Notes under the pieces: model-generated | What the model was told of the DNA's origin: nothing | Databases searched by the model: none | What the model saw: only the letters and a program-made list of their open reading frames with translations | Translations under genes and position numbers: made by a program | Assembly: GCA_902596545.1 (NCBI GenBank) | Contig: CACJUH010000001.1 | Span: forward strand, 70,858-134,857 | Origin: an uncultured Candidatus Actinomarina sp. | GTDB taxonomy: Bacteria > Actinomycetota > Acidimicrobiia > Actinomarinales > Actinomarinaceae | Direction of reading: 5' to 3' | Length of the DNA stretch: 64,000 bases | Part shown: in pieces, positions 8,721 to 50,974 of the stretch | How the letters are laid out: the number at the start of each line of letters is the position of its first letter | Position numbering within the stretch: the stretch's first letter is position 1

Positions 8721-8721
8721 A

Positions 8722-9668: not shown

Positions 9669-9673
9669 TAACT

Positions 9674-10738: not shown

Positions 10739-11187
10739 TGAAAAAGTTACGTTTTCATCATTTAAAACCAACACCTGGATCTACAAAACAGAAATTAAGA
10801 AAAGGTCGCGGTGAAGCTGGAAAGCGAGGAAAGACTGCAGGTAGAGGAACTAAAGGTACAGGTGCTAGGAAAACCGTTCCTGCATATTTTGAAGGAGGTC
10901 AAATTCCTTTATATAGGAGAATTCCTAAATTAAGAGGTTTAAACAATCCACCTAAAATGTCTTATGTTGTTGTAAATGTAAGTGATCTCGAAGAAAAAGC
11001 TGCTGATGGTGAAGTTAATCCTGATGTTCTTAGGGAACTTGGCTTAACTAGAAAAAAAGGTCTTGTTAAAGTTTTAGGTGATGGTGAAGTTACAAAAAAA
11101 ATTGACCTTAAGATTCACGCGATTAGTGAAGTAGCTAAAAGTAAAATTGAAAGTGCTGGCGGGTCTGTCGAGATAATTAATGAGTAA
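10738..11187 (+). CDS. rplO: 50S ribosomal protein L15
   Basis: 149 aa, glycine- and basic-rich L15 N-terminus. Confidence 0.93.
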   Translation: MKKLRFHHLKPTPGSTKQKLRKGRGEAGKRGKTAGRGTKGTGARKTVPAYFEGGQIPLYRRIPKLRGLNNPPKMSYVVVNVSDLEEKAADGEVNPDVLRELGLTRKKGLVKVLGDGEVTKKIDLKIHAISEVAKSKIESAGGSVEIINE

Positions 11188-11189
11188 TT

Positions 11190-12503
11190 ATGCAACTCTC
11201 AATATTTAGATATATATTTAAAATTCCAGACCTTAGAAAAAGAATATTTTTTACTCTTTTTATGTTTGCTGTTTACAGGCTCGGTGCAGCAGTGCCAGTA
11301 CCAGGAGTAGATTTAGAGGCTGTTCAACGTCTAACTGACTCAGGATCACAAGCTGGAATTTATGGTTTATTAAATTTATTCTCCGGAGGTGCTTTAGAGA
11401 CATTTTCTGTTTTTGCTTTAGGAATTATGCCATACATTACAGCTAGTATCATTCTTCAGCTATTGACAGTTGTGATACCAAGATTACAAAAACTACAAGA
11501 AGAAGGAGAGTCTGGTAGAAAAGTGATCACTCAATGGACAAGGTACATAACAGTAGTTTTAGCTCTATTGCAATCAACTGCCTTAACTTATTTATTTTCT
11601 AGAGGTAGTCTCACAGGTGGTATTTCACTTATTCCAAATTACACACCATCTAGAGTTGGATTGATAGTTTTAACAATGACTGCAGGTACTGCCTTTATTA
11701 TGTGGATTGGTGAGTTGATTTCACAAAGAGGAGTTGGAAATGGAATGTCATTAATTATTTTTGCTAGCATTGTAAGCCAGCTTCCTGCACAATTTGGAGG
11801 TGCATATCAGGTAACTGCTGGACAAGGAAGAATTGGACAATTTACATTTTTAATGCTCATGTTCTTTTTAATGATTGTTGGAATAATCTATGTTGAGCAA
11901 GGTCAAAGAAGAATCCCTATACAATTTGCAAAAAGAGTAAGAGGCAGAAAAGTTATGGGTGGTCAAAGCACATATATCCCTCTTAAGGTCAACAGTGCTG
12001 GAGTTATCCCAGTTATTTTTGCGACAAGTATTTTGTTTTTTCCTGCATTAGTAGCTACTTCATTACCACAAGATAATTCTGTTACTGCAGCAATTAGAAA
12101 TTGGATAGACGTTAACTTGGCAAATTCCCAGGGTACAACATGGTTTTATATTTTCTTTTTAGGGATATTGATAATATTTTTTACTTATTTTTATACAACT
12201 ATACAATTTGATCCAGTACGTCAATCAGACATGATCCGAAGGCAAGGTGGCTTCGTTCCAGGAGTAAGGCCGGGTATATCAACAACAAATTATTTGTCAC
12301 ATATAATAAACAGAATTACCTTACCAGGCTCTATATTTTTAGCATCCGTCGCAGTATTGCCATCGATAGCTTCTGCGATTTGGGATATACCTTTAGGTTT
12401 TAGCGGAATTTCAATCTTAATAACTGTCGGTGTTGCTCTTGAAACTATGAAGCAAATTGAAAGTCAGTTAAGCATGAGAAATTATGAAGGATTCATTGAT
12501 TGA
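11190..12503 (+). CDS. secY: Preprotein translocase subunit SecY
   Basis: 437 aa, 10-TM protein, conserved position after rplO. Confidence 0.95.
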   Translation: MQLSIFRYIFKIPDLRKRIFFTLFMFAVYRLGAAVPVPGVDLEAVQRLTDSGSQAGIYGLLNLFSGGALETFSVFALGIMPYITASIILQLLTVVIPRLQKLQEEGESGRKVITQWTRYITVVLALLQSTALTYLFSRGSLTGGISLIPNYTPSRVGLIVLTMTAGTAFIMWIGELISQRGVGNGMSLIIFASIVSQLPAQFGGAYQVTAGQGRIGQFTFLMLMFFLMIVGIIYVEQGQRRIPIQFAKRVRGRKVMGGQSTYIPLKVNSAGVIPVIFATSILFFPALVATSLPQDNSVTAAIRNWIDVNLANSQGTTWFYIFFLGILIIFFTYFYTTIQFDPVRQSDMIRRQGGFVPGVRPGISTTNYLSHIINRITLPGSIFLASVAVLPSIASAIWDIPLGFSGISILITVGVALETMKQIESQLSMRNYEGFID

Positions 12504-13060
12504 GTGAATTAAATATATTTCTTGGACCGCCAGGTGCAGGAAAAGGAACTCAAGCTCTGAAAATTGCGTCTGAATTTGACCTAGCCCATATCTCAACGGG
12601 TGATATGTTGAGAGAACATGTAAGCAGTGGAACTGAACTAGGTAAAATAGCTAAAAGTCTTCTTGATGAAGGAAATTTAGTCCCTGACAAATTAGTTATA
12701 GAAATGCTTCTAGAGAGACTGAATAATGAAGACTGTAAGAATGGTGCAATCCTTGATGGCTTCCCCAGAACCTTACCCCAAGCTAAAAGCTTAGAGAGTT
12801 TAGATAAAGAATTTCCTGTTGCGAAAGTTTTTGTATTTGAAGTAAACGAAGATGAATTAATAAAAAGAATTTTACTAAGAGGGGAAATGACTGGCAGATC
12901 CGATGATACTGAAGATTCAATTAAGGTCAGGTTTGAAGTTTACAAAAAAGATACGCAGCCTTTAGTTGATTTTTATAATGAAAAAAACTTGGTAAATGTT
13001 ATAGATGCTGTTGGGGAAGTAGAGGATATTTACAACTCAATTTCTAGACACTTTAAATAA
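12500..13060 (+). CDS. adk: Adenylate kinase
   Basis: GPPGAGKGTQA P-loop, short-LID form, TTG start overlapping the secY stop. Confidence 0.9.
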   Translation: MSELNIFLGPPGAGKGTQALKIASEFDLAHISTGDMLREHVSSGTELGKIAKSLLDEGNLVPDKLVIEMLLERLNNEDCKNGAILDGFPRTLPQAKSLESLDKEFPVAKVFVFEVNEDELIKRILLRGEMTGRSDDTEDSIKVRFEVYKKDTQPLVDFYNEKNLVNVIDAVGEVEDIYNSISRHFK

Positions 13061-13812
13061 TGATTACATATAAAACACCAGAAGATTTTAAAAAGATGGA
13101 AGCTGCAGGAAAAGTTGTATCAAATATACACTATGAAATTTATGATAAAACAAAAGCAGGAATGACACTTATTGATTTAGACGATATTGCCAAAAATATA
13201 ATTGAGAAGTCAAATGTAAAAGCTAGTTTTTTAGGATATCACGATTATCCAGCTCATATATGTGCTTCACCAAATGATGTAATTGTTCATGGAATACCCA
13301 ATGATTATGTTGTAAATGAAGGAGATATAATTTCTATTGATGTTGGCGTTATTTTTGAAGGATATCATGCTGATGCAGCTTTTAGTTTTGGTGTTGGTGA
13401 AATTACAGAAGAAGAAAAAAATCTATTATCAAAAACTAAACATGCACTTCATGAAGGTATAAAACTTGTAAAGGATGGTCAAAAACTGGGAACAATTGGT
13501 CATAAAATTGACAAAATAGCTAAGAAAAACAATTTTGGCAATGTTAGGAACTATGTTGGTCATGGAATAGGTCAAGAAATGCACGAAGAACCCCAAGTAC
13601 CCCATTATGGTAAGAAGAATCAAGGTTTTGAATTAAAAACAGGTATGGCAATATGTATTGAGCCAATGTTTAATCTTGGTACAGAAGAGAATTTTATTGA
13701 TGAAGATGGCTGGACAATTAGAACATTAGATGGAAAAAAGTCTGCACATTGGGAACATACTGTAGGAATTACCGAGGAAGGAACACGTGTTTTTACTGAA
13801 AACTTATTTTAA
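13060..13812 (+). CDS. map: Methionine aminopeptidase type I
   Basis: 250 aa, metal-ligand motifs (D..D..H..E..E), conserved position. Confidence 0.93.
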   Translation: MITYKTPEDFKKMEAAGKVVSNIHYEIYDKTKAGMTLIDLDDIAKNIIEKSNVKASFLGYHDYPAHICASPNDVIVHGIPNDYVVNEGDIISIDVGVIFEGYHADAAFSFGVGEITEEEKNLLSKTKHALHEGIKLVKDGQKLGTIGHKIDKIAKKNNFGNVRNYVGHGIGQEMHEEPQVPHYGKKNQGFELKTGMAICIEPMFNLGTEENFIDEDGWTIRTLDGKKSAHWEHTVGITEEGTRVFTENLF

Positions 13813-13878
13813 TTTTGTGTTTGTAATAGTTTCAAATCGCACTAATCTAGTAAATCGGTCACATAATCAAGGCTAATT

Positions 13879-14103
13879 TTGGTAGAAAAAGAAAAAAACA
13901 TAATAAAAGTCCAAGGGACAGTTATGGAAACACTGCCAAATGCCTCTTTTAAGGTTCAGCTTGAAAGTGGAGCTGAAATATTAGCTCATGTGTCTGGAAA
14001 AATGAGAATGAGGTACATTAGAATCCTTCCAGGTGATGTTGTTGAAATGGAAGTTTCACCATATGATCCAACAAGAGGTAGGATTATTTGGAGACATAAA
14101 TGA
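13879..14103 (+). CDS. infA: Translation initiation factor IF-1
   Basis: 74 aa, S1-like fold, [19 protein letters not shown] motif, apparent TTG start. Confidence 0.9.
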
Positions 14104-14216
14104 AAGTTAAAGCAAGTATTAAAAAGCGTGGTCCAAATGACCAAATTGTAAGAAGAAAAGGAAAGCTTTACGTAATTAATAAAAGAAATCCTAGACACAA
14201 ACAAAGGCAAGGTTAA
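14100..14216 (+). CDS. rpmJ: 50S ribosomal protein L36, cysteine-free (zinc-independent) form
   Basis: 38 aa, [38 protein letters not shown]. Overlaps infA by ATGA. All four zinc-ribbon Cys/His positions are replaced. Confidence 0.85.
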
Positions 14217-14222
14217 TTTACA

Positions 14223-14600
14223 ATGGCACGTATTTCAGGTATTGATATCCCAAGGGATAAGAGAGTTATAGCATCTTTGAGATACATCCATGGAATCGGA
14301 TCCAAAAGAGCTGAAGATATTTGTGTTGATTTAAAAATTGACCCCAGCACAAGAGTAAGTAATTTAACAAATGATGAAGTTGCTCAAATTAGAAAATACA
14401 TCGAAGCTAATTTTAGAGTTGAGGGAGATCTTAGACGAGATGTGTCCCAAAATATTCGTAGAAAAACAGAAATTGGAACATATCAAGGATTAAGGCACAG
14501 AATGGGATTACCAGTCAGAGGACAGAGAACTCACACTAATGCTAGAACACGAAAAGGCCCAAGATTTGCAATTGCCGGAAAAAAGAAAGCGACTAAATAA
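14223..14600 (+). CDS. rpsM: 30S ribosomal protein S13
   Basis: [15 protein letters not shown] is canonical. Confidence 0.95.
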
Positions 14601-14602
14601 TA

Positions 14603-14986
14603 ATGGCAGATCAAAAAACTAAAAAGAAGAACAAGAAAAACGTTCCTTCAGGAGTAGCTCATATTAAAGCTAGTTTCAACAACACAATAATTAATATTTC
14701 TGACCCAGCCGGACAAACAATTGCTTGGACATCCGGTGGTTCAGTAGGATTTAAAGGTTCAAGAAAATCTACACCCTATGCTGCTCAAGTCGCTGCAGAA
14801 GAGGCAGTTCGAAGAGCTACAGAGCACGGTGTGCATAAGCTAGACATTATCATTAGCGGCACTGGTGCTGGTAGAGAAACAGCTGTTAGAACTCTACAAA
14901 ATATGGGAATGGATGTAGGGACTATTAAAGATATAACACCAACACCTCACAATGGGTGCAGACCCAAGAAAAGAAGAAGGGGATAA
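14603..14986 (+). CDS. rpsK: 30S ribosomal protein S11
   Basis: 127 aa, S11-like. Confidence 0.95.
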
Positions 14987-15600
14987 TGGCTAGATATACA
15001 GGACCTCGAGTTAGAGTATCAAGAAGAATAGGCTTTAATGTATTTGAAAATAGGAAGGGCGACAAAGCACTTCAAGATAGACCATATCCTCCTGGAGAAA
15101 ATGGAAGAAAGCGTGCAAGAGAAACTGATTACGGCACCCAATTAAAAGAAAAGCAAAAAGTTAGATATATGTATGGTGTCCTAGAAAAGCAATTTAGAAA
15201 TTACTATAAAGAAGCTTCAAGAATGAATGGCATAACTGGTGAGAACCTTTTAATTTTACTTGAATCAAGACTTGATAATGTAATTTATAGAGCTGGTTTT
15301 GCATCTACCAGACCTCAAGCAAGACAGCTTGTATCACACAGACATTTCAAATTAAATGGAAAATTCGTAGACGTTCCATCGCATCAAGTTAAAGCTGGAG
15401 ATGTAATTGAGATAAAAGACTCAAGCCAAGATTTAATTGTTATTCAACACACCATTGATACTGGTCAAGACTACGTTATACCTTCTTGGTTGGATGTCGA
15501 TAGTAAAAAGAAAATTGTAAAGATTGCTGCATCTCCCACAAGGAATGATGCAAGTTCACAAATTGAAGAACAATTAATAGTAGAGCTTTATTCAAAATAA
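14986..15600 (+). CDS. rpsD: 30S ribosomal protein S4
   Basis: Trimmed to ATG 14986 ([14 protein letters not shown]), TAATG junction with rpsK. Confidence 0.93.
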   Translation: MARYTGPRVRVSRRIGFNVFENRKGDKALQDRPYPPGENGRKRARETDYGTQLKEKQKVRYMYGVLEKQFRNYYKEASRMNGITGENLLILLESRLDNVIYRAGFASTRPQARQLVSHRHFKLNGKFVDVPSHQVKAGDVIEIKDSSQDLIVIQHTIDTGQDYVIPSWLDVDSKKKIVKIAASPTRNDASSQIEEQLIVELYSK

Positions 15601-15621
15601 AATTTGAGAGGAGAAAATAAT

Positions 15622-16581
15622 ATGTTGATGCTACAAAGACCTGAAATTACTCAAGAAGACCTTGGTAATAACAGAACAAAATTTGTTATCGAACCGCTTG
15701 AGCCAGGTTTTGGATTAACACTTGGTAACACAATGAGGAGAGCACTTTTATCAAGAGTTCCTGGAGTTGCTGTAACTGGAATAAAAATTGACGGTGTGAA
15801 TCATGAATTTACATCTATACCCGGTGTAGTAGAAGATGTTTTAGATCTTCTTTTAAATCTAAAACGATTAGTCTTGAAAGTCGAAGATCAAGAAAACCAC
15901 ACATTAACAGTCAAAGCTAAGGGTCCTGGTGATGTCCTAGCTGCACAAATTCAATGTCCAGCAGGAGTTGAAGTTGTAAATACTGACTTAAAAGTTTGTA
16001 CGCTTTCAGATGGAGCCACATTAGACATGGAAGTATCAATCGCTCATGGTGTCGGATATCGACTTGCAGATAAAAATAAGACTAGTGACTCTAGCTTTAT
16101 TCCTATCGACTCGATTTTTTCTCCAATTGTAAGCGTAAGTTACGGAGTTTCCCCTACTCAAGTTGGACAAGTTACTGACTATGATAAATTAACTTTAGAT
16201 GTTGAAACTGATGGTTCAATTGAGCCTAGTGAAGCAATATCTTCAGTTGGCAAAACTTTGGGTGAATTATGGAAGCTTTTTGCTGATATAGATGAAGGTG
16301 TTGGACTCGAGCTTGGTGAGCTTACAATTTCTGAAGGCAGTTCCCCAGATCTCTCATTATCTGTTGATGCTTTAGATTTATCTGAAAGACCAAGAAATTG
16401 TCTTGGAAGAGAAAACATCACTACTGTGGGACAAATTCTTGAATATACAGAAGATGATTTGTTGAACTTAACTAACTTTGGTCAAAAAAGCTTAGATGAG
16501 CTTGTAGCAAAGTTAGATGAATTAGGTTTAAGCTTACCAACAAGTTCCGACCTAGACTCTGGAGATATGGCTGATGCCTAA
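15622..16581 (+). CDS. rpoA: DNA-directed RNA polymerase alpha subunit
   Basis: Start set at ATG 15622, preceded by a GAGAGGAG ribosome-binding site. N-terminal domain, C-terminal domain and an acidic tail. Confidence 0.93.
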
Positions 16582-16924
16582 ACCAACTAAAGGTAAAAGA
16601 CTTGGGGGCTCATCTTCCCATGAAGATCAAATTATAAGTAATTTGATAAGTGCTTTGATTCAACATGAAAAAATTGAGACAACAGTTACTAAAGCAAAGA
16701 CAGTAAAGCCTTACGCTGAAAAAGTAATTACCAAAGCCAAAAAAGGATCTTTACATGACAGGAGACAAGTTTTGAAAATGATTCAAGACAAATCTGTAGT
16801 AGCAAAACTATTTGAAGAAATTGGTCCCAAGTATGAAGACCGTGATGGTGGTTATACAAGAATTACAAGAACAAGACATAGACAGGGTGATGGTACAGAA
16901 TTAGCTATTTTAGAGCTAGTTTAA
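16574..16924 (+). CDS. rplQ: 50S ribosomal protein L17
   Basis: 116 aa, L17-like. Confidence 0.93.
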
Positions 16925-16927
16925 AGA

Positions 16928-17473
16928 GTGAACTCACTTAAAAATATTTGGTCACAATTTAAAAAATTTATAAGATTTGATCAGTCAACTTTTATTCAAA
17001 TCAGTAATGACAGGTATGAATCTGGAAATGCCCTAATAGTAGTATTACTGAGCTTGCTGTCTATTTATATACCTTTGGTCATTAATGCTTCAGTAGTCAA
17101 TGTTGCAGATATAATTTTTTATGGAGTTGTTGATGGAATTTTTGCATGGCTTTTTGCAAATCTTGCAATTTGGTTTTTATTATCAAGAGCATTTAATCAA
17201 CAAATCGAAATCCCTTCTCTTTTAGTTTTTACAGGCTACACACATGGTCTTGTAGGATTCATTGGTGTAGTTGTTTTAATAAATTCCTTGATCACTATTC
17301 CAGCCATTTTTTTGCAAATTACAACTATATCAATTTTTGCTTGGATGTATTTTGTATTATCAAAATCTCTACGTTCAGCTTTTTTATTTGAGGATAGGGT
17401 AGCAAGTATAACAACAGTGACTTTTTTACTTGTATTAACATTATTTTCAGACCCAATCCGTATTTTTGTTTAA
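16928..17473 (+). CDS. Hypothetical integral membrane protein, possibly Yip1-like
   Basis: 181 aa, GTG start, 4-5 predicted TM helices. No catalytic motif recognised. Confidence 0.5.
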   Translation: MNSLKNIWSQFKKFIRFDQSTFIQISNDRYESGNALIVVLLSLLSIYIPLVINASVVNVADIIFYGVVDGIFAWLFANLAIWFLLSRAFNQQIEIPSLLVFTGYTHGLVGFIGVVVLINSLITIPAIFLQITTISIFAWMYFVLSKSLRSAFLFEDRVASITTVTFLLVLTLFSDPIRIFV

Positions 17474-18199
17474 ATGCAAAATTACAAAGTAAGTATTGCA
17501 TATGATGGATCAAGCTTTTATGGATTTCAAAAACAAAAAAGTAGACCAACTGTACAAGGAAAAATAGAAGAAGTTCTTGATCTACTGATTGAAGATTACG
17601 AATTAAATTATTCTGGTAGAACTGATGCTGGAGTACATGCAAAAGAACAAGTATTAAACATTCTTACGGATATTAAAATTACTGAAAAATTAATCTCTTC
17701 AATTGATAAATTACTTGGAAACTCTATTTCAGTAAATTCATTTAATCAAATTAGTAATGATTTTCATGCTAGGTACAGTGCAAAAGAACGAACTTATGTT
17801 TACTCTACAATGGATAATCAAAAAAAATTACCTTATTTACTTAATAGTACTCACCAACATAATTCATCACTCGATTTGGAAAAGTTGAATGAAATATCTC
17901 AATTATTTTTGGGAAAGAATGACTTTTCATCATTTGCTAAAGTTGAAAAAAATAAAAATCCTGAAAGAGAAATTTTTAAAAGTGTATGGAAAAAAAACTC
18001 TAATATTTTTACATATACAATTACTGGAAATTCATTCCTTAGAAATATGGTGAGAAATTTAGTCGGCGTACAACTGGCTTTTAATGATAATAAATTAACA
18101 TTAAAAGAAATAAAATCACAATTAGATAAACCTGATGGAAATCGTTTAAATTATATAGCTCCTGCTAACGGTTTAACTCTTTGGAAAGTTAAATACTAG
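17474..18199 (+). CDS. truA: tRNA pseudouridine(38-40) synthase
   Basis: 241 aa with the catalytic Asp motif region (GRTDAGVHA). Conserved position after rplQ. Confidence 0.9.
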   Translation: MQNYKVSIAYDGSSFYGFQKQKSRPTVQGKIEEVLDLLIEDYELNYSGRTDAGVHAKEQVLNILTDIKITEKLISSIDKLLGNSISVNSFNQISNDFHARYSAKERTYVYSTMDNQKKLPYLLNSTHQHNSSLDLEKLNEISQLFLGKNDFSSFAKVEKNKNPEREIFKSVWKKNSNIFTYTITGNSFLRNMVRNLVGVQLAFNDNKLTLKEIKSQLDKPDGNRLNYIAPANGLTLWKVKY

Positions 18200-18259
18200 T
18201 TTTCATAAATATATATGCACTTTATACTAGTATTTCGTTACAATTCTAAAGATTGATAA

Positions 18260-18721
18260 ATGAATACAAAAACAACATTTGAAGGAATAGAATCCTCAGA
18301 ACGCAACTGGCACTTAGTTGATGCAAGTGGTCTACCTATTGGAAGACTAGCCAGTGAAATTGCACAAATTTTGAGAGGAAAACATAAACCTCAATACGCA
18401 CCTCATTTAGATGTAGGAGATCACGTAGTTGTAATAAACGCTTCAAAAATATCTATTACTTCAAAAAAGTCTGAACAAAAAATGTACCATTCACATTCCG
18501 GATTTCCTGGAGGTATAAAATCTGAAAGTTTTAATTCTCTAAGGCAGAGAAAGCCAGAAAAAATAATTGAACGCGCTGTATGGGGTATGTTGCCAAAAAA
18601 TAGATTAGGAAGATCTATATTAAAAAAGCTTCACATATACGCAGATTCAAACCACCCTCATCAAAGTCAAGATCCAAAAGAGCTAAGTTTTAACATAAAG
18701 AAAGTAGAAGAAAATGGCTAA
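18260..18721 (+). CDS. rplM: 50S ribosomal protein L13
   Basis: 153 aa, L13-like. Confidence 0.95.
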   Translation: MNTKTTFEGIESSERNWHLVDASGLPIGRLASEIAQILRGKHKPQYAPHLDVGDHVVVINASKISITSKKSEQKMYHSHSGFPGGIKSESFNSLRQRKPEKIIERAVWGMLPKNRLGRSILKKLHIYADSNHPHQSQDPKELSFNIKKVEENG

Positions 18722-19103
18722 CTCATTTTATGGAACTGGAAGAAGAAAAACCTCTGTAGCAAGAGTTACTTTAACTGAAGGTACAGGAAAATTTACATTC
18801 AACGGAAAAGATGTAGAACAATATTTTCCAAGTCCATCTATGAAAATGACAATTGAGAAACCTTTTAAAGTTGTAAACATGGATTCAAAATATGATGTTG
18901 TTGCCAATGTAAGTGGTAGTGGATTATCAGCTCAGGCAGACGCAGTTTCACTTGGAATATCACGTGCATTATTAGAAGTTGATCCTGACTTAAGACCTAA
19001 ATTAAAAAAAGCCGGGTTGCTTACTCGAGACGCGAGAAAAGTTGAGCGTAAAAAATATGGTCTCAAGAAAGCAAGAAGAGCCGAGCAATTTACTAAGAGA
19101 TAG
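18714..19103 (+). CDS. rpsI: 30S ribosomal protein S9
   Basis: 129 aa, C-terminal ...KKYGLKKARRAEQFTKR. Confidence 0.95.
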   Translation: MANSFYGTGRRKTSVARVTLTEGTGKFTFNGKDVEQYFPSPSMKMTIEKPFKVVNMDSKYDVVANVSGSGLSAQADAVSLGISRALLEVDPDLRPKLKKAGLLTRDARKVERKKYGLKKARRAEQFTKR

Positions 19104-19111
19104 TCAAAAAA

Positions 19112-20419
19112 TTGAAGCAATATTTCGGTACTGATGGAATCCGAGGTATTCCAAACGAAACTCTGAATAAAGATTTAGTTTCAAAAATATTTTCTTCTGT
19201 AGAGTTACTTTTATCACCAAAATCCGTGGCAGTAATTTTAGATACAAGAAGTTCATCGTTAGAACTTCTAGATTGGATATGTGCTGGCTTAAGTGAAAAT
19301 GTCGAGGTTATTAATTATGGAGTGCTTCCTTCTGGTTCAATGCCTGTTCTTTTAAAAGAATTCAATCATGATCTTGGTGTAATTATTTCAGCATCTCATA
19401 ACCCAAGTGAATATAACGGTATTAAATTAATTGATCATAAAGGTTCAAAACTATCTGACAATCTTGAGATAGATATAGAAAAAGCTCTGTCTGATGTTAA
19501 TTTACCTAAAGAGTTTACAACTTCCAAAGAATCTCAAAATGGATATCAAGCCTACCTTGAGTTTTTAAATAATTTAATTAATTTTGATCTAGCTAAATTT
19601 AATGTATTGTTTGATACAGCTAATGGGTCTTCATATAAAATAATTGAAGATTTGTTTAAGTCAAAAAAAGCTAAATATAGAATAATTTCAAATAATCCAG
19701 ATGGAGAAAATATAAATTTAAATTGTGGAGCAACTCACCTCGATAACTTAAAGCAAAATAGTGGAAAAAATGAAATTGGTGCAGCGTTTGATGGTGATGC
19801 AGATCGACTCATTTTGCTAGATGAGGAAGGAAATATTTGTAATGGTGATGTGATTATATTATTAATTGCAAAGTATCTTGAGGCAATTAATCAGTTAAAC
19901 AATAAAGTGGTCGTATCAACAGTTATGGCAAATTACGGCTTTAAAAATTCAATGGATAAAAACAATTTTAAGAATATTGAAACTAAAGTAGGCGACAAAT
20001 ATGTTGCAGAAGCGATGGATGAAAACAATGCCTCAATAGGTGGGGAGCAATCTGGTCATATAATTATTTCTGAAGCATTACCAGTAGGTGATGGCCTTGT
20101 AACTTTAATATACTGCTTAAAAGCACTTGCATTTTTTGACACTACATTATCAAAATTTAAATCTGAAAATATTGAGGAATATCCGCAAAAATTAGTCAAT
20201 CTTGAATTGAGTACTATGCCTGAGGAAAACCAAATTAAAGAATTGAATAAAATAGCAAAAAAATTGACTGATAAATACGATTTAGATGGAAGGTACTTGA
20301 TTAGAAATTCAGGAACTGAGCCATTACTTAGAGTGCTAATTGAAGCTAAAGATAGTAATTCTGTAAATGAATTTAGTGATGAATTAATAAACAATATTAA
20401 AAACTATCTTTTTACTTAA
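19112..20419 (+). CDS. glmM: Phosphoglucosamine mutase
   Basis: MKQYFGTDGIRG N-terminus, SASHNPSEYNGIK phosphoserine loop, TTG start. Confidence 0.92.
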   Translation: MKQYFGTDGIRGIPNETLNKDLVSKIFSSVELLLSPKSVAVILDTRSSSLELLDWICAGLSENVEVINYGVLPSGSMPVLLKEFNHDLGVIISASHNPSEYNGIKLIDHKGSKLSDNLEIDIEKALSDVNLPKEFTTSKESQNGYQAYLEFLNNLINFDLAKFNVLFDTANGSSYKIIEDLFKSKKAKYRIISNNPDGENINLNCGATHLDNLKQNSGKNEIGAAFDGDADRLILLDEEGNICNGDVIILLIAKYLEAINQLNNKVVVSTVMANYGFKNSMDKNNFKNIETKVGDKYVAEAMDENNASIGGEQSGHIIISEALPVGDGLVTLIYCLKALAFFDTTLSKFKSENIEEYPQKLVNLELSTMPEENQIKELNKIAKKLTDKYDLDGRYLIRNSGTEPLLRVLIEAKDSNSVNEFSDELINNIKNYLFT

Positions 20420-20622: not shown

Positions 20623-22419
20623 ATGTGTGGAATAATCGGGTATTCAGGCCCAAAAGAACCCTTACCAATTCTAATTAGTGGATTATCAAGATTAGAGTAC
20701 CGCGGATATGATTCTGCGGGAGTGGCTTTAATTGATGGAGATAACCTATCAATAGAAAAAAAAGAAGGAAAACTCAGTGTGCTTAAGGAGCATTTAGAAG
20801 GAACTTCAATAAAAGGAAACATTGGAATTGGTCATACAAGATGGGCAACACATGGAGTTCCGAGCGATGTTAATGCTCATCCTCATGCGGATAATGCTAA
20901 TGAATTTGCCATCATTCACAATGGAATTATTGAGAACTACGCTGAGTTAAAAGATGATTTAATTCAAGACAATTATAGCTTTATTTCGGAAACCGACACA
21001 GAGGTTGTTGCTGTTGAGTTGAGTAGAAAATGGAATGGTGAGTTGTTAGATACTGTTTTAGATGTAGCTAAATCACTTGATGGTACCTATGCTCTTGTTG
21101 TAACTTCAACAAAACAGCCAGGCACAATTGTAGCTGGAAGAATGATGAGTCCATTAGTTCTAGGTGTTGGTGAGGGGGAGGTCTTTTTAGCATCTGACTC
21201 TGCAGCAATTTTAGAATATACAAACAAAATGATATTTCTAGAGAATGGTGACTTTGTAGAAATTAATGATGGAAATTTTACTTTGTACGATATAGAAAAA
21301 AATGTAATAACAAGAGATATTCAAGTTATAGACTGGGAGGTCTCTGAAGCAGAAAAAGCTGGTCATGACCATTTCATGTATAAAGAAATACTTGAACAAG
21401 CAGAAGTAATTGAGAGAACAATTGCAGGAAGAATTGAAAAAAACTCAACAGAAATACCAATACATTTAGATAAAGCAAAAAAGTTTGAAAAGATATGGAT
21501 TGTTGCTTGCGGTACTGCTTATCATGCTGGTTTATTTGGTAAAGATTTATTTGAAAAAGTTCTTGGAGTTCCTGTAAGTGTTGAACTTGCTTCTGAGTTT
21601 AGATATCGAGAGCCAATAATAGGCAAAAATGATCTTGCTATTGTTATATCTCAGTCTGGTGAAACTATGGATACAATCGCAGCAACAGAATTACTAAAAG
21701 AAAATGGATCTCACGTATTAGCTTTAGTAAATGTTGTTGGGAGCTCACTTGCAAGAATGGCAGATAGTGTATTTTATCTTCACGTTGGTCCAGAAATTGG
21801 TGTGGCATCAACAAAAGCATACTTGGGAATGTTAGTTGGACAACTTTTGCTAGCAAAACATTGGGATTCAAATAATAAATTAGATACTTCACTTGAAGAG
21901 ATTAAGGCGCTTCCTTCTTTAATCGAAGAAGCGTTAAAGTGTGAAGATCAAGTAAAACAGATATCAAAACTAATTTATAAGAAGAAAGATATTTATTTTA
22001 TAGGTAGAGGCTTAGATTATGCTTTGGCTGCTGAAGGGGCATTAAAATTGAAAGAGATATCTTATCTTCATGCTGAAGCTCTTGCAGCAGGAGAACTTAA
22101 GCATGGAACACTTGCACTTATTGAAGAAGGAACTCCAGTGATAGTCACCGCTAGTCAAAGACATTTATTAGATAAAACAACTAGCAATGTACAAGAGGTA
22201 ATTGCTAGAGGAGCGTATGTTATAGCAGTTGGAGATGTTTCATCTAAGAAATTAAAAGACATATCAAATAATTACATTGCACTTCCTGAAACAAGTGAAA
22301 TGCTGTCGACTATTATATCGATTATCCCTCTACAGTTTATTGCTTATCATGTAGCTAATTTAAATGGCGAGTCAATTGACCAGCCCAGAAATTTAGCTAA
22401 ATCTGTAACTGTTGAATAA
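20623..22419 (+). CDS. glmS: Glutamine--fructose-6-phosphate aminotransferase
   Basis: 598 aa, MCGIIGY N-terminal nucleophile, two SIS domains. Confidence 0.95.
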   Translation: MCGIIGYSGPKEPLPILISGLSRLEYRGYDSAGVALIDGDNLSIEKKEGKLSVLKEHLEGTSIKGNIGIGHTRWATHGVPSDVNAHPHADNANEFAIIHNGIIENYAELKDDLIQDNYSFISETDTEVVAVELSRKWNGELLDTVLDVAKSLDGTYALVVTSTKQPGTIVAGRMMSPLVLGVGEGEVFLASDSAAILEYTNKMIFLENGDFVEINDGNFTLYDIEKNVITRDIQVIDWEVSEAEKAGHDHFMYKEILEQAEVIERTIAGRIEKNSTEIPIHLDKAKKFEKIWIVACGTAYHAGLFGKDLFEKVLGVPVSVELASEFRYREPIIGKNDLAIVISQSGETMDTIAATELLKENGSHVLALVNVVGSSLARMADSVFYLHVGPEIGVASTKAYLGMLVGQLLLAKHWDSNNKLDTSLEEIKALPSLIEEALKCEDQVKQISKLIYKKKDIYFIGRGLDYALAAEGALKLKEISYLHAEALAAGELKHGTLALIEEGTPVIVTASQRHLLDKTTSNVQEVIARGAYVIAVGDVSSKKLKDISNNYIALPETSEMLSTIISIIPLQFIAYHVANLNGESIDQPRNLAKSVTVE

Positions 22420-39637: not shown

Positions 39638-40398
39638 ATGAGAAATCTTTCTACAATAGTTGTAGCAATTGAAATAAATGATAAATAATAAAGAAGATAG
39701 GACTTTTTAAATTCTCTTTTCTTAAGTTCAATTGAACCGTTAAAACCTCTTGATATCATTGAGTTATAAACTCTTTCACCTCTTTCATACCCTCTTATCA
39801 ACATTGCACCAGAAGCATATGCAATTGGTTTTAATCCCCTTAATCCTTTTTGATCATAACCTCTTGATTTCATAGCAACTTTAACTCTTTTAAATTCATC
39901 AATAAAAACATCAATATATCTAATTGCAAAAGATAATATTGAAATTAACAACGGTGAAATTTTTAATTTTTGCAAACCATAAATAATCTCAATATTTGAT
40001 GTAGTAGCAGTTAAAACAATTGCTAACGAAACACACAGTGTAATTTTAATTAATATTGAAATCATTTCGTTGAAACCAGTTTCATAAATAGGCAATGAAA
40101 AAAATTCAAACATAACAGTACTGTCTCCCTTACTTAAAAAAGGGAGAAATAAAGCAAACAGTACAAAGGGTATATCGATTGAAAGTCTTTTAAAATATGT
40201 TGATATTTTTATTTTAGATAAATACAACAACAATAATACAACGAAAGTTTGTACAACTATTGCTAAATTTTTCTCAAGGCTTAAAAAAGCAATAGACAAA
40301 ACAATTATAAATGTTGTTGCAATTTTGATTTCAGGTCTGATATTGCTGAGAACAGAGTTACTGTGAATTTCTAGATGATGAGAGTGTGTTGTTTCCAT
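39634..40398 (-). CDS. ECF transporter transmembrane T component (CbiQ/EcfT-like)
   Basis: 254 aa, 5-6 TM helices, C-terminal AMKSRGY...IRGYERG motifs typical of CbiQ/EcfT. Confidence 0.75.
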   Translation of the reverse strand: METTHSHHLEIHSNSVLSNIRPEIKIATTFIIVLSIAFLSLEKNLAIVVQTFVVLLLLYLSKIKISTYFKRLSIDIPFVLFALFLPFLSKGDSTVMFEFFSLPIYETGFNEMISILIKITLCVSLAIVLTATTSNIEIIYGLQKLKISPLLISILSFAIRYIDVFIDEFKRVKVAMKSRGYDQKGLRGLKPIAYASGAMLIRGYERGERVYNSMISRGFNGSIELKKREFKKSYLLYYLSFISIATTIVERFLI

Positions 40399-40404
40399 AT
40401 AAAA

Positions 40405-40437
40405 ATATGTTAATGCAAATTATTTGCAATAACATAT
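40405..40437. promoter_or_regulatory. 33-bp near-perfect palindrome between the fur-family gene and the ECF T gene
   Basis: atatgttaatgcaaat-t-atttgcaataacatat, 15 of 16 arm positions complementary. It is a candidate metalloregulator operator and/or bidirectional terminator. Confidence 0.5.
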
Positions 40438-40854
40438 TTATTTACACTTTTTACATATACCTGAATATATAAAATGATGATTTATACTCTTAAAATTACT
40501 ATCTTTAATTAAAATTTTGTTAATTTCCTCTTTAGTTTCTGTTTTCAAATCAGAGATTGAATTGCACGAATCACAAATAATATGGTTATTATCATATTCA
40601 CTTTTTAAATAATATATTCCTGAACCATGAACTTGGTGAGAGTGTTCAACAATGTCTACTTTTTCTAACAACTCTAGAGTTCTATAAACAGTTGCCAAAT
40701 CTATATTTTGATCTTTTTTCAATGCTAAATTATGTAATTTTTCAACAGTAAAATGTTCGTGTCCTGCAGTTTCTAAAATGTTACAAATCACCTCCCGCGG
40801 ACTAGTGATTCTGTGACCCCTTTTTTTTAATTCATTAACGAAATCCATATTCAA
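40438..40854 (-). CDS. Fur-family metalloregulator (Fur/Zur/Nur-like)
   Basis: 138 aa. N-terminal winged helix (RITSPREVI...ATVYRTLELLE). Metal sites HxHxxC..C (HIICDSC) and C-terminal CKKC. Confidence 0.85.
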   Translation of the reverse strand: MNMDFVNELKKRGHRITSPREVICNILETAGHEHFTVEKLHNLALKKDQNIDLATVYRTLELLEKVDIVEHSHQVHGSGIYYLKSEYDNNHIICDSCNSISDLKTETKEEINKILIKDSNFKSINHHFIYSGICKKCK

Positions 40855-40882
40855 GTATATTATAAGGTTTGATAAGGGACTT

Positions 40883-41356
40883 ATGAAAAGAAAATTTCTA
40901 AAGATACTTAATCGGTATAGTTTAATTTATTTACCTTTAGGCTGGGTTATTGGATTAGCAATTTTCTTTTTTGCATTTGAGCCTTCAGCTGTCTTATATT
41001 TTCTAAGTTTTTTTGTTCTTGGAATATTTTATTTTCTGATTTCATATACTTCTAATCGCAAAATGGTTGACTCGTCTTATTCATATTCAGATTATGAAAA
41101 TTCAATTATTGAATTTTATTCTGATTACTGACTGGGTTGTACTGCTTCAAAATTCATAGTTGATGAATTTAAAAAAGAAAATCCAGAAGTTTTTTTTGTA
41201 TCAATTAATGCTAGTAAACAAAAAGATCATCCATTTATTGATGAGTACAAATTATTTAATACTCCAACATATGTTTTGATAAATAACAAAGGTGAAAAAA
41301 TAGTTAGAAGAGTTGGAACATTTAATCCCACCTACTTTAAAAAATATTTAGCTTAA
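40883..41356 (+). CDS. Membrane-anchored thioredoxin-fold protein with a single in-frame TGA (41129-41131) at the first redox-motif position. Candidate selenoprotein (UxxC) or recent pseudogene
   Basis: Two N-terminal TM helices, then beta1 of the Trx fold (SIIEFYSDY), TGA, LGCTASKF... and a cis-Pro motif (NTPTYVL), all in one frame. The TGA aligns with the first Cys of the thioredoxin WCGPC motif. A hairpin (aaattcat-agttg-atgaattt) lies at 41150-41170, 18 nt after the TGA. Confidence 0.5.
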
Positions 41357-41688
41357 GATACTCTATCGCCTAATTCTGAATCCTCTTCAGGTGACAACAA
41401 AAGCACATCTCCATTACTTGATATTGAACCTAATACTAAACACTGGCTCATTATTGGACCAATTTGCTTTTCACCTAAATTAATAACAGCTATACATTTT
41501 TTATCTGTAAGACTATTTAAATCATAATTTGTAATTTGAGCACTTGTTTTTTTTAGGCCAATTTCTTCACCAAAATCAATAGTTAGAATATACGCAGGTT
41601 TTATTGCTTCTTCAAATACTTCAGCTTTAACAATTTTTCCAACTCTTATATCTAATTTAGAAAATAAACCTACATTTTCACTATTCAT
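41353..41688 (-). CDS. csaA: tRNA-binding domain protein (CsaA/Myf-like)
   Basis: Trimmed to MNSENVGLFSKLDIRVGKIVKAE. Similar to B. subtilis CsaA (DIRVGKIVKAE, IDFG, INLG). Confidence 0.75.
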   Translation of the reverse strand: MNSENVGLFSKLDIRVGKIVKAEVFEEAIKPAYILTIDFGEEIGLKKTSAQITNYDLNSLTDKKCIAVINLGEKQIGPIMSQCLVLGSISSNGDVLLLSPEEDSELGDRVS

Positions 41689-41716
41689 ATAACAAACATA
41701 ATTACATACTGATAAC

Positions 41717-42262
41717 ATGTCAAAAATTTTCATCCTAAGTGCTGGAACAAGTCCTGATTCATATAACAATCAACTTGCGAAGCACCTAAGTAATTATTTT
41801 GATAAAAAAGGTTTAGAAAATGTTCTTTTTGACAATTTATATTCTGATATTCCATTTTTACTGGACACTCACGATGATGTTCCAGAAAAAATTCTTGAAA
41901 TGAGAAAATCATTAGAGGTATCTGAAAAAATAATTATTTTTAGCCCTGTTTACAACGGTGGGTTTTTAGCACATTTAAAAAATACTCTAGATTGGCTTTC
42001 ACTTGCATATGATGAAAACCGTTATAGTGCTTTATTTAAAGAAAAAAAAGTTGCAGTTGTTACAACCGTTAAGGGGGCTGGAGGTAATGCCCAGAAAGCA
42101 TTTGAAATTCTAAGTATGCAATTATCAAATTATGATTTGCAAGTTTTTGAAAAATTTCATTTAATCACTAAATCAGAACATCAAAATGAAAAAAGTATTC
42201 TAAACAATCGGGATGTTATTGAATCATTGAATAGTTATGCAGAAGAGTTTTTAGATTTATAG
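41717..42262 (+). CDS. NAD(P)H-dependent FMN reductase / flavodoxin-like fold protein
   Basis: 181 aa, MSKIFILSAGTSP..., IIFSPVYNGGF motif. Confidence 0.65.
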   Translation: MSKIFILSAGTSPDSYNNQLAKHLSNYFDKKGLENVLFDNLYSDIPFLLDTHDDVPEKILEMRKSLEVSEKIIIFSPVYNGGFLAHLKNTLDWLSLAYDENRYSALFKEKKVAVVTTVKGAGGNAQKAFEILSMQLSNYDLQVFEKFHLITKSEHQNEKSILNNRDVIESLNSYAEEFLDL

Positions 42263-48832: not shown

Positions 48833-50974
48833 ATGTCATTGGATTCTAATTTACCGGAAGACTGGAAAAAATTACTAAACCCAAGTCAGATTCAAGCCAT
48901 AGAAACAATTAATGGACCTGTATTAATAATGGCAGGAGCAGGTTCAGGTAAAACTAGAGTATTGACTCATAGGTATGCCCATTTAGTAAAACACCATAAT
49001 GTAGACGTTGAGCAAATATTGGCTATTACATTTACAAATAAAGCAGCAGAAGAAATGAAATCAAGAATAAGTAAGCTTCTTAATTTAAAAATTTCACCAA
49101 AGTGGATATCAACTTTCCATAGTTTGTGTGTAAAAATTTTAAGAATCCATGGAGATAAGATAGGTTACAAAAGCAACTTTACTATTTACGATCAATCTGA
49201 TTCAAATAAAGTGATTAGGAATTGTATGTCTGAAAACAATGTTGACCTTAAACAATATTCACCAAAACGTTTCCAGGCACATATATCTAATCTTAAGAAC
49301 AGCATGATAAGCCCTGGGGAGGCACTAGAGAATGCAGAATCTTTTTTTGAAGTAAAAGTTGCCGAAATTTATTCAAGCTATGAAAAAAAATTAATAATTG
49401 CTAATTCAATGGATTTTGATGATCTTTTAATTAAAACTGTAGAACTTTTACAAACAAATGAAAGCATTTTGAAGTTTTGGTCTAATAAATTTCAATTCAT
49501 CATGGTTGATGAATACCAAGATACAAATTTTGTACAATACAAATTAGTTGAGCTTCTTGGTTCAAATAATAAAAATGTTTGTGTAGTTGGAGACTCGGAT
49601 CAAAGTATCTATGCATTTAGGGGTGCGGATATTAGAAATATTATTGAATTTGAAAAAGATTTTAGTAACGCAACAGTTATTCAACTAGATAAAAACTACA
49701 GATCTTCTAAAAAGATTCTTAATTTAGCTAACTCAGTCATATCTAATAATCCACGAAAAATTGAAAAAAATCTTTGGACTGATAACGAAGATGGTTTAGA
49801 TATTTCATCATTTAGATTTAGATCTGAAAAAGATGAAGCAAGATGGGTTGCAGAAGAAGTTAAAAACCTAATAGATTCATCCAAAGAGAATGAGGTTGCA
49901 ATTTTTTATAGAACCAATAGCCAATCACGTTTATTTGAGGAAGAACTAAGAATGTTAAATATTAATTATAAAGTCATTGGCAGTGTGAGATTTTATGACA
50001 GAAAAGAGATTAAAGATATAATCTCATACCTACAATTTTTAGTTAATGATAGTGATACAGTTGCATTTGAAAGAATTGTAAATGTTCCAAGGCGAGGAAT
50101 AGGAGAGTCTACTGTAAAAAAAATAAGGATATATTTAAATGAAACAGGAAAGTCTATATTTGAAGCACTGGAATCAATAGAGGAGATTAAAAATATTTCT
50201 CCACGAATTAAAGGAAGTCTCTCGGAATTTAAAGATTTAATTACTGAACTAAAGTCCTATTCGCTTCAAGGTCCCTCGAAAACAATCCAAAACGTTTTGG
50301 AGCTTACAGGATATAAAATGAGTTTGATTAAAGAAGGTACACTAGAGTCACAAATGCGCATAGAAAATATTGAAGAACTTCTAAATTCCGCATTTAGTTT
50401 TGAGAATTTGTATGAAGAAGAAATTGATGAACCTTATGGAATGCTCAGAGATTACTTAGAATCCATTGCCCTATTTTCTGAAACTGATAAATTAGAAGAT
50501 GCTGATAGAGTTTTGTTGATGACTCTACATAACGCAAAAGGCTTGGAGTTTCCATATGTATTTATGACTGGAATGGAAGAAAATTTATTTCCGCATGAAA
50601 GAAGTTCTCAAGGAGATAACTCTGAAATTGAGGAAGAAAGAAGACTTTGTTATGTTGGAATAACAAGAGCTGAAAAAAAGCTTTATTTAACTCATTCGTG
50701 GTCAAGGACACTTTGGGGTGGCACAGTTTATAATTTACCAAGCCGTTTTCTAGAAGAGGGTTCTAGTCATTTTGATACTGTAGATTTTTCACTTGATACT
50801 AAACAAAAAGACTCTACTCAGCTTGAAGTTGGTACAGGTCAAAAAATAATTCATGAAAAATATGGAGAAGGGCTTGTTTTAGAAGTTCAGGGAAATGAAA
50901 TAACTGTTCAATTTAATGATGATATTGGAGTAAAGTATCTTGATGTAGAATGGGCACCCATAAAATTTCAATAA
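48833..50974 (+). CDS. pcrA: ATP-dependent DNA helicase PcrA/UvrD
   Basis: 713 aa, AGAGSGKTRVLTHR Walker A, SF1 helicase motifs. Confidence 0.92.
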   Translation: MSLDSNLPEDWKKLLNPSQIQAIETINGPVLIMAGAGSGKTRVLTHRYAHLVKHHNVDVEQILAITFTNKAAEEMKSRISKLLNLKISPKWISTFHSLCVKILRIHGDKIGYKSNFTIYDQSDSNKVIRNCMSENNVDLKQYSPKRFQAHISNLKNSMISPGEALENAESFFEVKVAEIYSSYEKKLIIANSMDFDDLLIKTVELLQTNESILKFWSNKFQFIMVDEYQDTNFVQYKLVELLGSNNKNVCVVGDSDQSIYAFRGADIRNIIEFEKDFSNATVIQLDKNYRSSKKILNLANSVISNNPRKIEKNLWTDNEDGLDISSFRFRSEKDEARWVAEEVKNLIDSSKENEVAIFYRTNSQSRLFEEELRMLNINYKVIGSVRFYDRKEIKDIISYLQFLVNDSDTVAFERIVNVPRRGIGESTVKKIRIYLNETGKSIFEALESIEEIKNISPRIKGSLSEFKDLITELKSYSLQGPSKTIQNVLELTGYKMSLIKEGTLESQMRIENIEELLNSAFSFENLYEEEIDEPYGMLRDYLESIALFSETDKLEDADRVLLMTLHNAKGLEFPYVFMTGMEENLFPHERSSQGDNSEIEEERRLCYVGITRAEKKLYLTHSWSRTLWGGTVYNLPSRFLEEGSSHFDTVDFSLDTKQKDSTQLEVGTGQKIIHEKYGEGLVLEVQGNEITVQFNDDIGVKYLDVEWAPIKFQ

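Follow-up and report, generated by a model that had tools for sequence, protein, structure and literature searches.

What is read at a TGA that stands in the middle of an otherwise intact gene? The question is raised by a 64,000-nucleotide stretch of DNA from an uncultured Candidatus Actinomarina sp. (contig CACJUH010000001.1; the whole stretch is called the window here), in which a single in-frame TGA at 41129-41131 interrupts an otherwise open frame of 157 codons (40883-41356, plus strand) ending in a TAA (41354-41356). The frame encodes a thioredoxin-fold protein with a predicted membrane anchor, and the TGA is its codon 83. This UGA is most probably read as selenocysteine (Sec, U), a reading given a probability of about 0.9; we infer Sec insertion itself from the sequence, the fold, the conservation of the site and a hairpin downstream of it. 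The initial annotation of the locus had proposed a candidate selenocysteine protein with a U-L-G-C motif, and the conserved TGA, the Cys counterparts in homologs and the constrained hairpin support that proposal.

The gene and its parts are as follows.

40883-41356, plus strand: proposed complete recoded gene, Sec83 included, for a membrane-anchored thioredoxin-fold protein (from the frame, homolog lengths and synteny)
41129-41131, plus strand: proposed Sec codon 83, TGA, first residue of U-L-G-C; the next nucleotide is always C (TGAC)
41138-41140, plus strand: TGT, Cys86, predicted resolving Cys of UxxC; invariant in the wide-family alignment, with locus L058 (TTT) as the exception
41151-41169, plus strand: SECIS-like hairpin (SECIS, selenocysteine insertion sequence), 7-bp stem 41151-41157/41163-41169, loop AGUUG at 41158-41162 (from RNAalifold, entropy and distant Sec forms)
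41264-41266, plus strand: CCA, Pro128, the cis-proline of T-P-T; an invariant column in the 33-sequence family alignment
40883-40921, plus strand: N-terminal basic segment MKRKFLKILNRYS, charge +5, closing in an N-x-Y-S motif (from conservation and charge counts)
40919-40975, plus strand: hydrophobic helix 1, residues 13-31, predicted transmembrane (TM) helix (from the AlphaFold2 helix and a hydropathy scan)
40988-41053, plus strand: hydrophobic helix 2, residues 36-57, predicted TM helix (from the AlphaFold2 helix and charge counts)
41090-41353, plus strand: thioredoxin-fold domain, residues ~70-157 (from Pfam, alignments, AlphaFold2, Foldseek and the family profile)

The thioredoxin fold and the conservation of the TGA

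The AlphaFold2 model, built with 14 homologs (predicted local distance difference test 87.6, predicted template modelling score 0.79), consists of a short N-terminal helix, two long hydrophobic helices joined by a short acidic loop (EPSA) and a compact thioredoxin fold. Within the N-terminal segment, conservation of N10 and S13 is 90% or more, even among homologs of 17-30% identity. The elements of the domain (beta 73-79, alpha 84-99, beta 103-109, alpha 117-121, beta 129-134, beta 139-144 and alpha 149-153) follow the beta-alpha-beta-alpha-beta-beta-alpha order of thioredoxins; the dithiol position lies where the first helix starts, and the cis-Pro loop is in place. Comparison of the model with the PDB by Foldseek returns thioredoxins as the best matches (E about 2e-7, target-normalised TM-score 0.65-0.79, root-mean-square deviation about 2 A), and the family profile matches solved thioredoxins at E=2e-16. 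When Cys is put in place of Sec, the protein scores 23.8 bits against PF00085 Thioredoxin (cut-off 23.5) and 24.7 bits against PF13098 Thioredoxin_2 (cut-off 27). The one continuous frame, the two TM helices and the complete thioredoxin fold that had been described from the sequence are thus all recovered by translation, AlphaFold2 and Foldseek.

The position of the TGA within this fold is exact. Strand beta1 comprises residues 73-79 (SIIEFYS), the active site opens the helix of residues 84-99, and the TGA aligns on the first Cys of the CxxC motif of solved thioredoxins (FYSDY*LGC, the asterisk being the TGA, versus FYADWCGPC). The wider-family profile gives the same alignment, as had been claimed at the outset. 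A plain stop had also been expected to split the domain; in the model it would fall between beta1 and the active-site helix.

The conservation of the site was followed through one scan of species-representative genomes, for which the C-terminal half of the protein served as the query. The scan returned 49 loci, 48 of them labelled Candidatus Actinomarina, Actinomarinales, OCS155 cluster or other Acidimicrobiia/Actinomycetota, and one (L049) in a bin labelled Saprospiraceae. The group consists of very small marine actinobacteria with AT-rich genomes. The closest is the single-cell genome AG-410-M23, which is 99% identical over the matched half of the protein. All 49 loci carry TGA at the site together with an intact downstream frame of 74 codons, and TGA is likewise present in 15 of 15 metagenomic loci of the clade (11, plus the four more divergent L011 and L065-L067). 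Among the 65 Actinomarinales-type copies read as DNA (the window and 64 loci), none has TGG or TGY at this position, though both are one mutation away.

The rest of the gene is equally stable. A length of 471 nt, free of insertions and deletions, is found in 57 of 59 full copies, in a background where synonymous sites are saturated between clades (synonymous divergence, dS, 0.8-1.9 or not computable). Downstream of the TGA the ratio of nonsynonymous to synonymous divergence (dN/dS) is 0.12-0.48, similar to that of the upstream half. The gene is single-copy and syntenic in all 49 species, and its protein evolves about as fast as those encoded next to it. All loci of sufficient length share one gene order: lipase, cbiO, cbiQ and fur on one side of the thioredoxin-like gene and genes for a tRNA-binding protein, an FMN reductase and an acyltransferase on the other. 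Taken together, these comparisons indicate that the part downstream of the TGA is under purifying selection and argue that a functional stop or a pseudogene is incompatible with the observed conservation.

One copy departs from the motif. In the metagenome-assembled genome 02um_A1B0725_3.57 (L058, about 10007-10009) the sequence reads U-L-G-F, the resolving Cys having become Phe by a change from TGT to TTT. A close relative of this copy, P0022, keeps the Cys, and L058 either results from faulty assembly or represents a natural variant that lacks the resolving residue.

Cysteine counterparts and the hairpin downstream of the UGA

Homologs beyond the Actinomarinales were sought by a profile search of 1.8 billion representative proteins, which gave 298 matches. 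About 30 of these are proteins of 157-183 residues and 17-30% identity that share the whole layout (N-x-Y-S, two hydrophobic helices and a thioredoxin domain). At the site of the TGA, the 33-sequence alignment has Cys in 21 sequences, 'W' in 11 and Ser in one. Wherever the DNA of a distant 'W' form was checked, the codon proved to be TGA (4/4; L061, L068, L069 and L070/L071), while the Cys forms checked in the same way have TGT (L063/L064) or TGC (L062 and L072). Cys86 and Pro128 are invariant in the wide-family alignment, apart from L058 at Cys86.

The closest Cys form, P0089 (L063/L064), is encoded on an AT-rich contig (32% GC) with TGT at the site. Its neighbours are lipase, cbiO, cbiQ, cbiM and fur on one side, and tRNA_bind, FMN_red and a plsC acyltransferase on the other, as around the window gene. 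By gene order, P0089 is a positional ortholog that has Cys where the Actinomarinales have TGA. Such a correspondence between Sec and Cys is the classical signature of a selenoprotein family. The orthologs of the window gene had been expected to settle whether the codon is TGA, TGC or TGT: it is TGA in the 49 species-representative and 15 metagenomic loci, none of which carries other disruptions, and Cys appears in the syntenic ortholog and in about 20 distant homologs.

A candidate signal for Sec insertion lies within the coding sequence. In the window, the hairpin aaattcat-agttg-atgaattt (41150-41170) has 8 bp, including an A-U pair of 41150 with 41170, and starts 18 nt past the TGA, as first described, with G and U in its loop. 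The stem conserved in relatives is shorter. In roughly half of them the outermost, eighth pair is replaced by A.C, and the core that they share has 7 bp, beginning 19 nt past the TGA, with a distance of 26 nt from UGA to loop.

The hairpin is under strong constraint at synonymous positions. Across 52 distinct Actinomarinales gene sequences, the entropy at third codon positions of codons 89-95 (41147-41167) is 0.12 bits against a gene mean of 1.10, the lowest of any seven-codon window, and this value was reached in 0 of 100,000 random draws (permutation p<1e-5). Because Ser, Val and Ile codons with 4-fold or 3-fold degeneracy are among those frozen, the constraint at codons 89-95 acts on RNA. 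RNAalifold, applied to 21 diverse sequences, yields one conserved element only, the 7-bp stem with its 5-nt loop AGUUG/A, in which all 147 of 147 cells are paired. At one stem position U-A is replaced by C-G in two sequences, which costs the substitution F91L, and two others have U-G as an intermediate; another pair goes from A-U to G-U in one sequence.

The distant Sec forms have a hairpin in the same register built from other stems (AGCUCAU/AUGAGUU, AGCCUG/CAGGCU, AGCCU.U/A.AGGUU and AACCUGU/ACAGGAU), with the loops AGUUA, AGUUG, CGUUG and CGUAG. The loop pattern NGU(U/A)(G/A) thus recurs in five other Sec lineages. Predicted energies range from -4.3 to -10 kcal/mol in the Sec forms (the window, L065, L068, L061, L069 and L070), and among the Cys forms are 0.0 kcal/mol in the syntenic L063, -0.7 in L062 and -5.9 in L072. 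Within the window, on both strands of the 64 kb, the TGA at 41129-41131 is the only one with open flanking frames that is followed, 16-37 nt downstream, by a hairpin with at least six of seven pairs and an NG[U/G]NN loop.

Published rules for bacterial SECIS (bSECIS) elements specify a loop of 3-9 nt, an upper stem of 4-16 bp, a G in the first two loop positions, a distance of 16-37 nt from UGA to loop and an energy of -7.5 kcal/mol or lower (PMC13188914). The window hairpin agrees with these in its 5-nt loop, which has G at position 2 followed by U, in its stem of 7-8 bp and in its 26-nt spacing. Folding against a SECIS model had been suggested as a check, and its outcome is in favour: loop, stem, G, spacing, constraint and compensatory changes all speak for such an element, and only the energy of the hairpin alone and the comparison with Rfam do not.

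Comparison also bears on two further ideas about the structure. The lower helix of the window's minimum-energy fold (41132-41138/41180-41186) was dropped from the model, as only 67% and 40% of its cells are paired. Restriction of the hairpin to Sec forms holds in part: two of the three Cys forms are without it, and L072 has it. The L072 hairpin lies 22-41 nt past the TGC (AACCUAU-CGUGG-AUAGGAU) and uses a rare AGG Arg codon in a contig of 55% GC. It may be a fossil SECIS left after conversion of Sec to Cys.

Other readings of the UGA

Several observations count against Sec insertion. The core hairpin, with one G-C pair, has an energy of -4.7 kcal/mol on its own (z -2.6) and misses the -7.5 kcal/mol rule; the 62 nt past the UGA reach -12.9 kcal/mol, but by means of the lower helix, which is not conserved. 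No match to the Rfam SECIS models (RF00031, RF01988-RF01991) appears in the window when the gathering score is applied, or in 41100-41260 when the limit is relaxed to E<=10, which is expected because those models do not cover such elements. The covariation score of the whole window-derived structure is reached by 18 of 500 shuffles and so does not decide the matter. The Cys form L072 keeps a hairpin of 6/7 pairs in the same register, and the G-U of the loop is the start of a conserved Val codon, so that part of the hairpin could follow from the codons of K-P-x-V-D-R. Nor is there a sign of the machinery nearby. ARAGORN finds no tRNA gene in the window or in the 49 loci with their flanks of plus or minus 10 kb, and crude scans of the six frames for SelA, SelD and GTPase motifs matched EF-Tu only; the Sec machinery is not local to the window region. 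Its presence in the genus is reported in one preprint that has not been peer-reviewed and that does not name this protein (bioRxiv 10.64898/2026.04.03.716425).

According to that preprint, of April 2026, each of the 84 complete genomes of Actinomarina carries selC (whose anticodon is UCA), selA, selD and a divergent selB, and lacks ybbB (bioRxiv 10.64898/2026.04.03.716425). The program deep-Sep predicts about five selenoproteins per Actinomarina genome, with similar numbers in 23 public genomes (bioRxiv 10.64898/2026.04.03.716425). Three families only are named, a 78-aa family, SelD and a K07090 family, and no SECIS was found, existing SECIS models failing there too (10.64898/2026.04.03.716425). 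The word 'thioredoxin' is absent from the main text, and the supplement has no list of selenoproteins (10.64898/2026.04.03.716425). The Actinomarina gene is probably among the deep-Sep predictions.

If the hairpin were not a SECIS, it would be a by-product of something else or would serve that other end, be it mRNA stability, a pause site during membrane insertion or constraints on codons, and another, unrecognised signal would direct Sec insertion. The hairpin of L072 (-5.9 kcal/mol in the same register), the Val codon that supplies loop positions 2-3 and the failure to reach the bSECISearch energy threshold all fit this view. It is nonetheless unlikely. Seven consecutive third positions are frozen here and nowhere else in the gene, and protein constraint cannot explain this for degenerate Ser, Val and Ile codons; the change from U-A to C-G is tolerated despite F91L; such a structure is absent from the syntenic Cys ortholog and from a second Cys form; and no alternative conserved structure is present within 70 nt past the UGA.

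A plain stop would make the product an 82-residue membrane peptide of two helices ending at Tyr82, with the thioredoxin-like part downstream in decay. Gene callers using table 11 do produce a product of 82-90 residues, and TGA is a normal stop elsewhere in the window. Against this stand the 74 downstream codons, intact in 49 of 49 species and in all metagenomic copies, with no insertions or deletions and a dN/dS of 0.12-0.48, as well as the cut that a stop would make between beta1 and the active-site helix and the full length of the Cys orthologs. Because the TGA is invariant, the frame intact, synonymous sites saturated, dN/dS low and synteny kept, a functional stop or pseudogene is rejected, with very little probability left to it. 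The initial annotation had already thought this outcome unlikely, and conservation together with purifying selection downstream now excludes it more firmly.

A reassigned code, in which TGA means Trp or Gly (tables 4 or 25), draws on the protein database, where 77 relatives are recorded and all 66 that span the site carry W. Six copies end at Tyr82 instead (P0065, P0068, P0069, P0071, P0076 and P0079), as table-11 gene calling would have it. The encoding contigs of the W forms checked do not give the stored protein under table 11; their DNA reads TGA, and no copy read as DNA has TGG at the site. For these reasons, the W is an artefact of table-4 gene calling on short AT-rich contigs. The window itself argues for the standard code, with this TGA as an exception, because 17 of its 75 non-overlapping open reading frames (ORFs) of at least 100 codons stop at TGA (52 stop at TAA and six at TAG). 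These genes are tightly packed, many of the TGA-ending ones showing ATGA overlaps, and the window has no second intergenic ORF pair that is bridged by read-through of TGA. Given the stop-codon usage, and given that no other ORF between genes depends on read-through, this alternative was dropped; it has practically no chance of being correct.

The gene is consequently mis-annotated in all database copies examined, either as an 82-residue fragment (table 11) or as a full-length protein with a catalytic Trp (table 4). A W that replaces the first Cys of CxxC is a usable flag for masked selenoproteins, and its recognition would bring to light those hidden in protein catalogues.

There remains read-through without selenium, in which a standard tRNA would insert Trp or Cys as a near-cognate while the hairpin and the UGA-C context slow termination. 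UGA-C is a leaky termination context in E. coli, and the hairpin, itself weak, fits none of the curated SECIS models. The site, however, is that of the catalytic Cys of CxxC, and homologs carry Cys there but never Trp by DNA; TGG and TGY lie one mutation away, yet appear in 0 of the 65 Actinomarinales-type copies; and the genus reportedly retains the complete Sec machinery along with several selenoproteins (10.64898/2026.04.03.716425). Selenium-free decoding is accordingly judged improbable.

Under the preferred reading, that of UGA as a Sec codon, SelB with Sec-tRNA(Sec) would be recruited by the hairpin in the coding sequence, with its 7-bp stem and AGUUG loop, and codon 83 would be decoded as Sec. 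Sec83 and Cys86 would then make up a redox centre of the U-x-x-C type, at the point where the first helix of the fold begins. By analogy with established thioredoxin chemistry, Sec83 may act as the exposed attacking nucleophile and Cys86 may resolve the selenenylsulfide. Given such a redox centre and the membrane anchor, the protein would be a membrane-tethered thiol/selenol-disulfide oxidoreductase.

Neighbours, membrane topology and related families

Three features lie upstream of the gene.

40438-40854, minus strand: divergent gene for a Fur-family regulator (PF01475, E=1.7e-26)
40857-40863, plus strand: -10-like box TATATTA (TATAAT in other clades) in the spacer between fur and the thioredoxin-like gene, within an AGTATAWT block conserved across clades
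40874-40879, plus strand: putative Shine-Dalgarno-like AAGGGA, ending 3 nt before the ATG; purine runs of the AAGGA/AAGGG type occupy this position in some relatives

The divergent Fur-family gene had been placed 28 nt upstream, and this distance holds when its TTG start is used; from the ATG at 40848, the start used by homologs, the gap is 34 nt. Fur adjacency is seen in all loci of relatives that reach that far. All NCBIfam models for Fur and PerR score below their cut-offs on this neighbour. Promoter consensus matches are found at 40835-40863 on the plus strand and 40887-40859 on the minus strand, and the -10 box overlaps the minus-strand -10 match for fur. The number of matches in the promoter scan is no higher than in shuffled sequence, so the evidence for a divergent promoter is its conservation. 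The arrangement suggests that the two promoters diverge and overlap, and the Fur-family protein may regulate both genes. Because the promoter region would be shared with a Fur-family gene, a response of the thioredoxin-like gene to metal or oxidative stress is possible.

Other neighbours offer smaller observations. On the downstream side, a CsaA-like tRNA-binding ORF (41353-41769, minus strand, 138 codons from a TTG) overlaps the stop of the selenoprotein gene convergently by 4 nt; since its homologs are called at 110-111 residues, it is probably over-extended. At L063, cbiM (4565-5494) stands between fur and cbiQ. In the window (40398-40438) and in all 49 Actinomarinales loci, fur adjoins cbiQ with a 40-nt gap, and CbiM of the cobalt/nickel energy-coupling factor (ECF) transporter is for this reason missing from the Actinomarinales cluster. 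In the two GC-rich Cys forms (L062 2737-3318 and L072 1136-1705), the next gene, with an overlap of 4 nt, encodes a TPMT/TehB-type methyltransferase (PF05724, PF03848). This methyltransferase family is linked to selenium and tellurium methylation, and the neighbour is a possible functional lead for the wider family.

Elsewhere in the window, a glmS ribozyme/riboswitch (RF00234, 20443-20590, plus strand, 86.8 bits, E=1.3e-18) lies directly upstream of a 598-codon ORF (20623-22419) that is presumably glmS. A match to Rfam RF03531 'n00280' (50603-50704, plus strand, 69.4 bits, gathering 65.2) falls inside a 713-codon ORF (48833-50974), a UvrD-type helicase by synteny with L063. RF03531 is described as a small RNA inside a Clostridioides helicase gene, and the match is probably conserved coding sequence, not an RNA gene. 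Positions 1-20000 carry tightly packed short ORFs on the plus strand, among them EF-Tu (885-2069, with a GHIDHGKT motif at 939), and look like a ribosomal-protein (S10/spc/alpha) region. The strong positive GC skew of these 20 kb reverses at about 36-44 kb.

The orientation of the protein in the membrane can be predicted from its charges. In the Actinomarinales, charge counts give +4.3 for the N-terminus, +0.1 for the loop and +1.8 after TM2; the N-terminus has 4-5 Lys/Arg (4.3 on average), the loop has none and the part following helix 2 has about two. The positive-inside rule, crude as it is, therefore predicts that both termini and the catalytic domain are cytoplasmic (N-in/C-in). The charges of the distant relatives (alignment A5, P0089-P0220) are inverted, with a neutral N-terminus and a basic loop, which hints at opposite membrane orientations within one homologous family.

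Thioredoxin-like selenoproteins with UxxC have been known from marine metagenomes since 2005-2008 and are the dominant class there. The Global Ocean Sampling (GOS) analysis described Trx-like 1, with 321 sequences from 42 samples, and the marine-enriched Trx-like 3, with 212; both rank with the most abundant selenoprotein families of the sea (PMC2398784). The selenoprotein families given in a 2026 review include Trx, thiol:disulfide interchange and many that are Trx-like (PMC13188914). The Actinomarina protein shares with the marine families the thioredoxin fold, Sec as the first residue of UxxC, Cys homologs, a SECIS hairpin after the UGA and an origin in marine surface water. Those families, however, were defined from anonymous reads, and the Actinomarina gene is mapped to none of them; its reads are likely hidden in the old 'Trx-like' bins. 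In the marine Trx-like selenoprotein literature examined, no description was found of the N-x-Y-S motif with a two-TM anchor, of an assignment to Actinomarinales or of synteny with fur. The deep-Sep selenoproteome comes from the same genus but includes no SECIS, whereas a conserved hairpin is defined here.

Canonical TrxA (PF00085, TIGR01068; PDB 2e0q and 3hhv, and E. coli Trx) has the same fold, with the active site after beta1 and the cis-Pro loop. The Actinomarina protein differs in having Y-U-L-G-C instead of W-C-G-P-C, a membrane anchor of ~60 residues and an identity of only 13-22%, and it is not a TrxA ortholog, because it scores 29.6 bits against TIGR01068, whose cut-off is 96.8. DsbD gamma, TlpA/ResA/DsbE and cyanobacterial TxlA are likewise membrane-attached thioredoxin domains. 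Compared with DsbD, TlpA, ResA and DsbE, the charges of the Actinomarinales proteins predict a cytoplasmic, not an external, catalytic domain, and the survey of flanking gene order revealed no CcdA or DsbD partner near the gene. For NF001419, the model of the C-terminal domain of DsbD, the score is 18.4 bits where the cut-off is 330. At E<=0.01, only TIGR01068, NF001419 and NF040494 match among NCBIfam models, all far below their cut-offs. The distant relatives give weak matches, below cut-offs, to models for TsoB, DsbE and slr1796, with TsoB (NF045694) matching 10 of them through the thioredoxin domain. The curated selenoprotein models of NCBIfam (GOS_C NF045500, SaoT NF040730, NF047660 HUIPC and TsoB NF045694) do not match the Actinomarina protein. 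By these comparisons it would be a selenoprotein of the Trx type that falls in no named subfamily.

Its hairpin also invites comparison with bSECIS elements of the fdhF type, which are similarly hairpins in the coding sequence 3' of the UGA with a small loop containing G then U; the 26-nt spacing lies in their range of 16-37. The fdhF SECIS stem starts 11 nt after the UGA, against 19 nt in the Actinomarina gene. The Actinomarina stem differs further in being AU-rich, with a single G-C pair, an energy of -4.7 kcal/mol and no evident bulged U. SelB of Actinomarina is reported to be divergent as well (10.64898/2026.04.03.716425).

The understanding of how selenoproteins are made is left unchanged by this gene, which is not surprising in mechanism. 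What it contributes is the correction of a systematic mis-annotation, a clean and conserved example of a SECIS in a genus whose SelB is reportedly divergent and where no existing model detects such an element, and a pointer to a selenoprotein conserved throughout a very abundant, extremely streamlined marine bacterium. A broader proposal is attractive and still speculative, its chances being rather below even: the protein may be the founding example of a distinct family, marked by N-x-Y-S, a two-helix membrane hairpin and a thioredoxin domain, that has undergone several switches between Sec and Cys and that in Actinomarinales is a universal core selenoprotein, facing the cytoplasm and co-regulated with a Fur-family repressor by way of divergent promoters that overlap. 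If so, the gene would link membrane redox maintenance to metal and oxidative stress in very abundant ocean bacteria, and the selenium need of this one protein would be a main reason why a streamlined genome of 1.1 Mb keeps the Sec machinery. As a core gene in all 49 species, it offers a concrete target for asking why genomes of this size retain that machinery.

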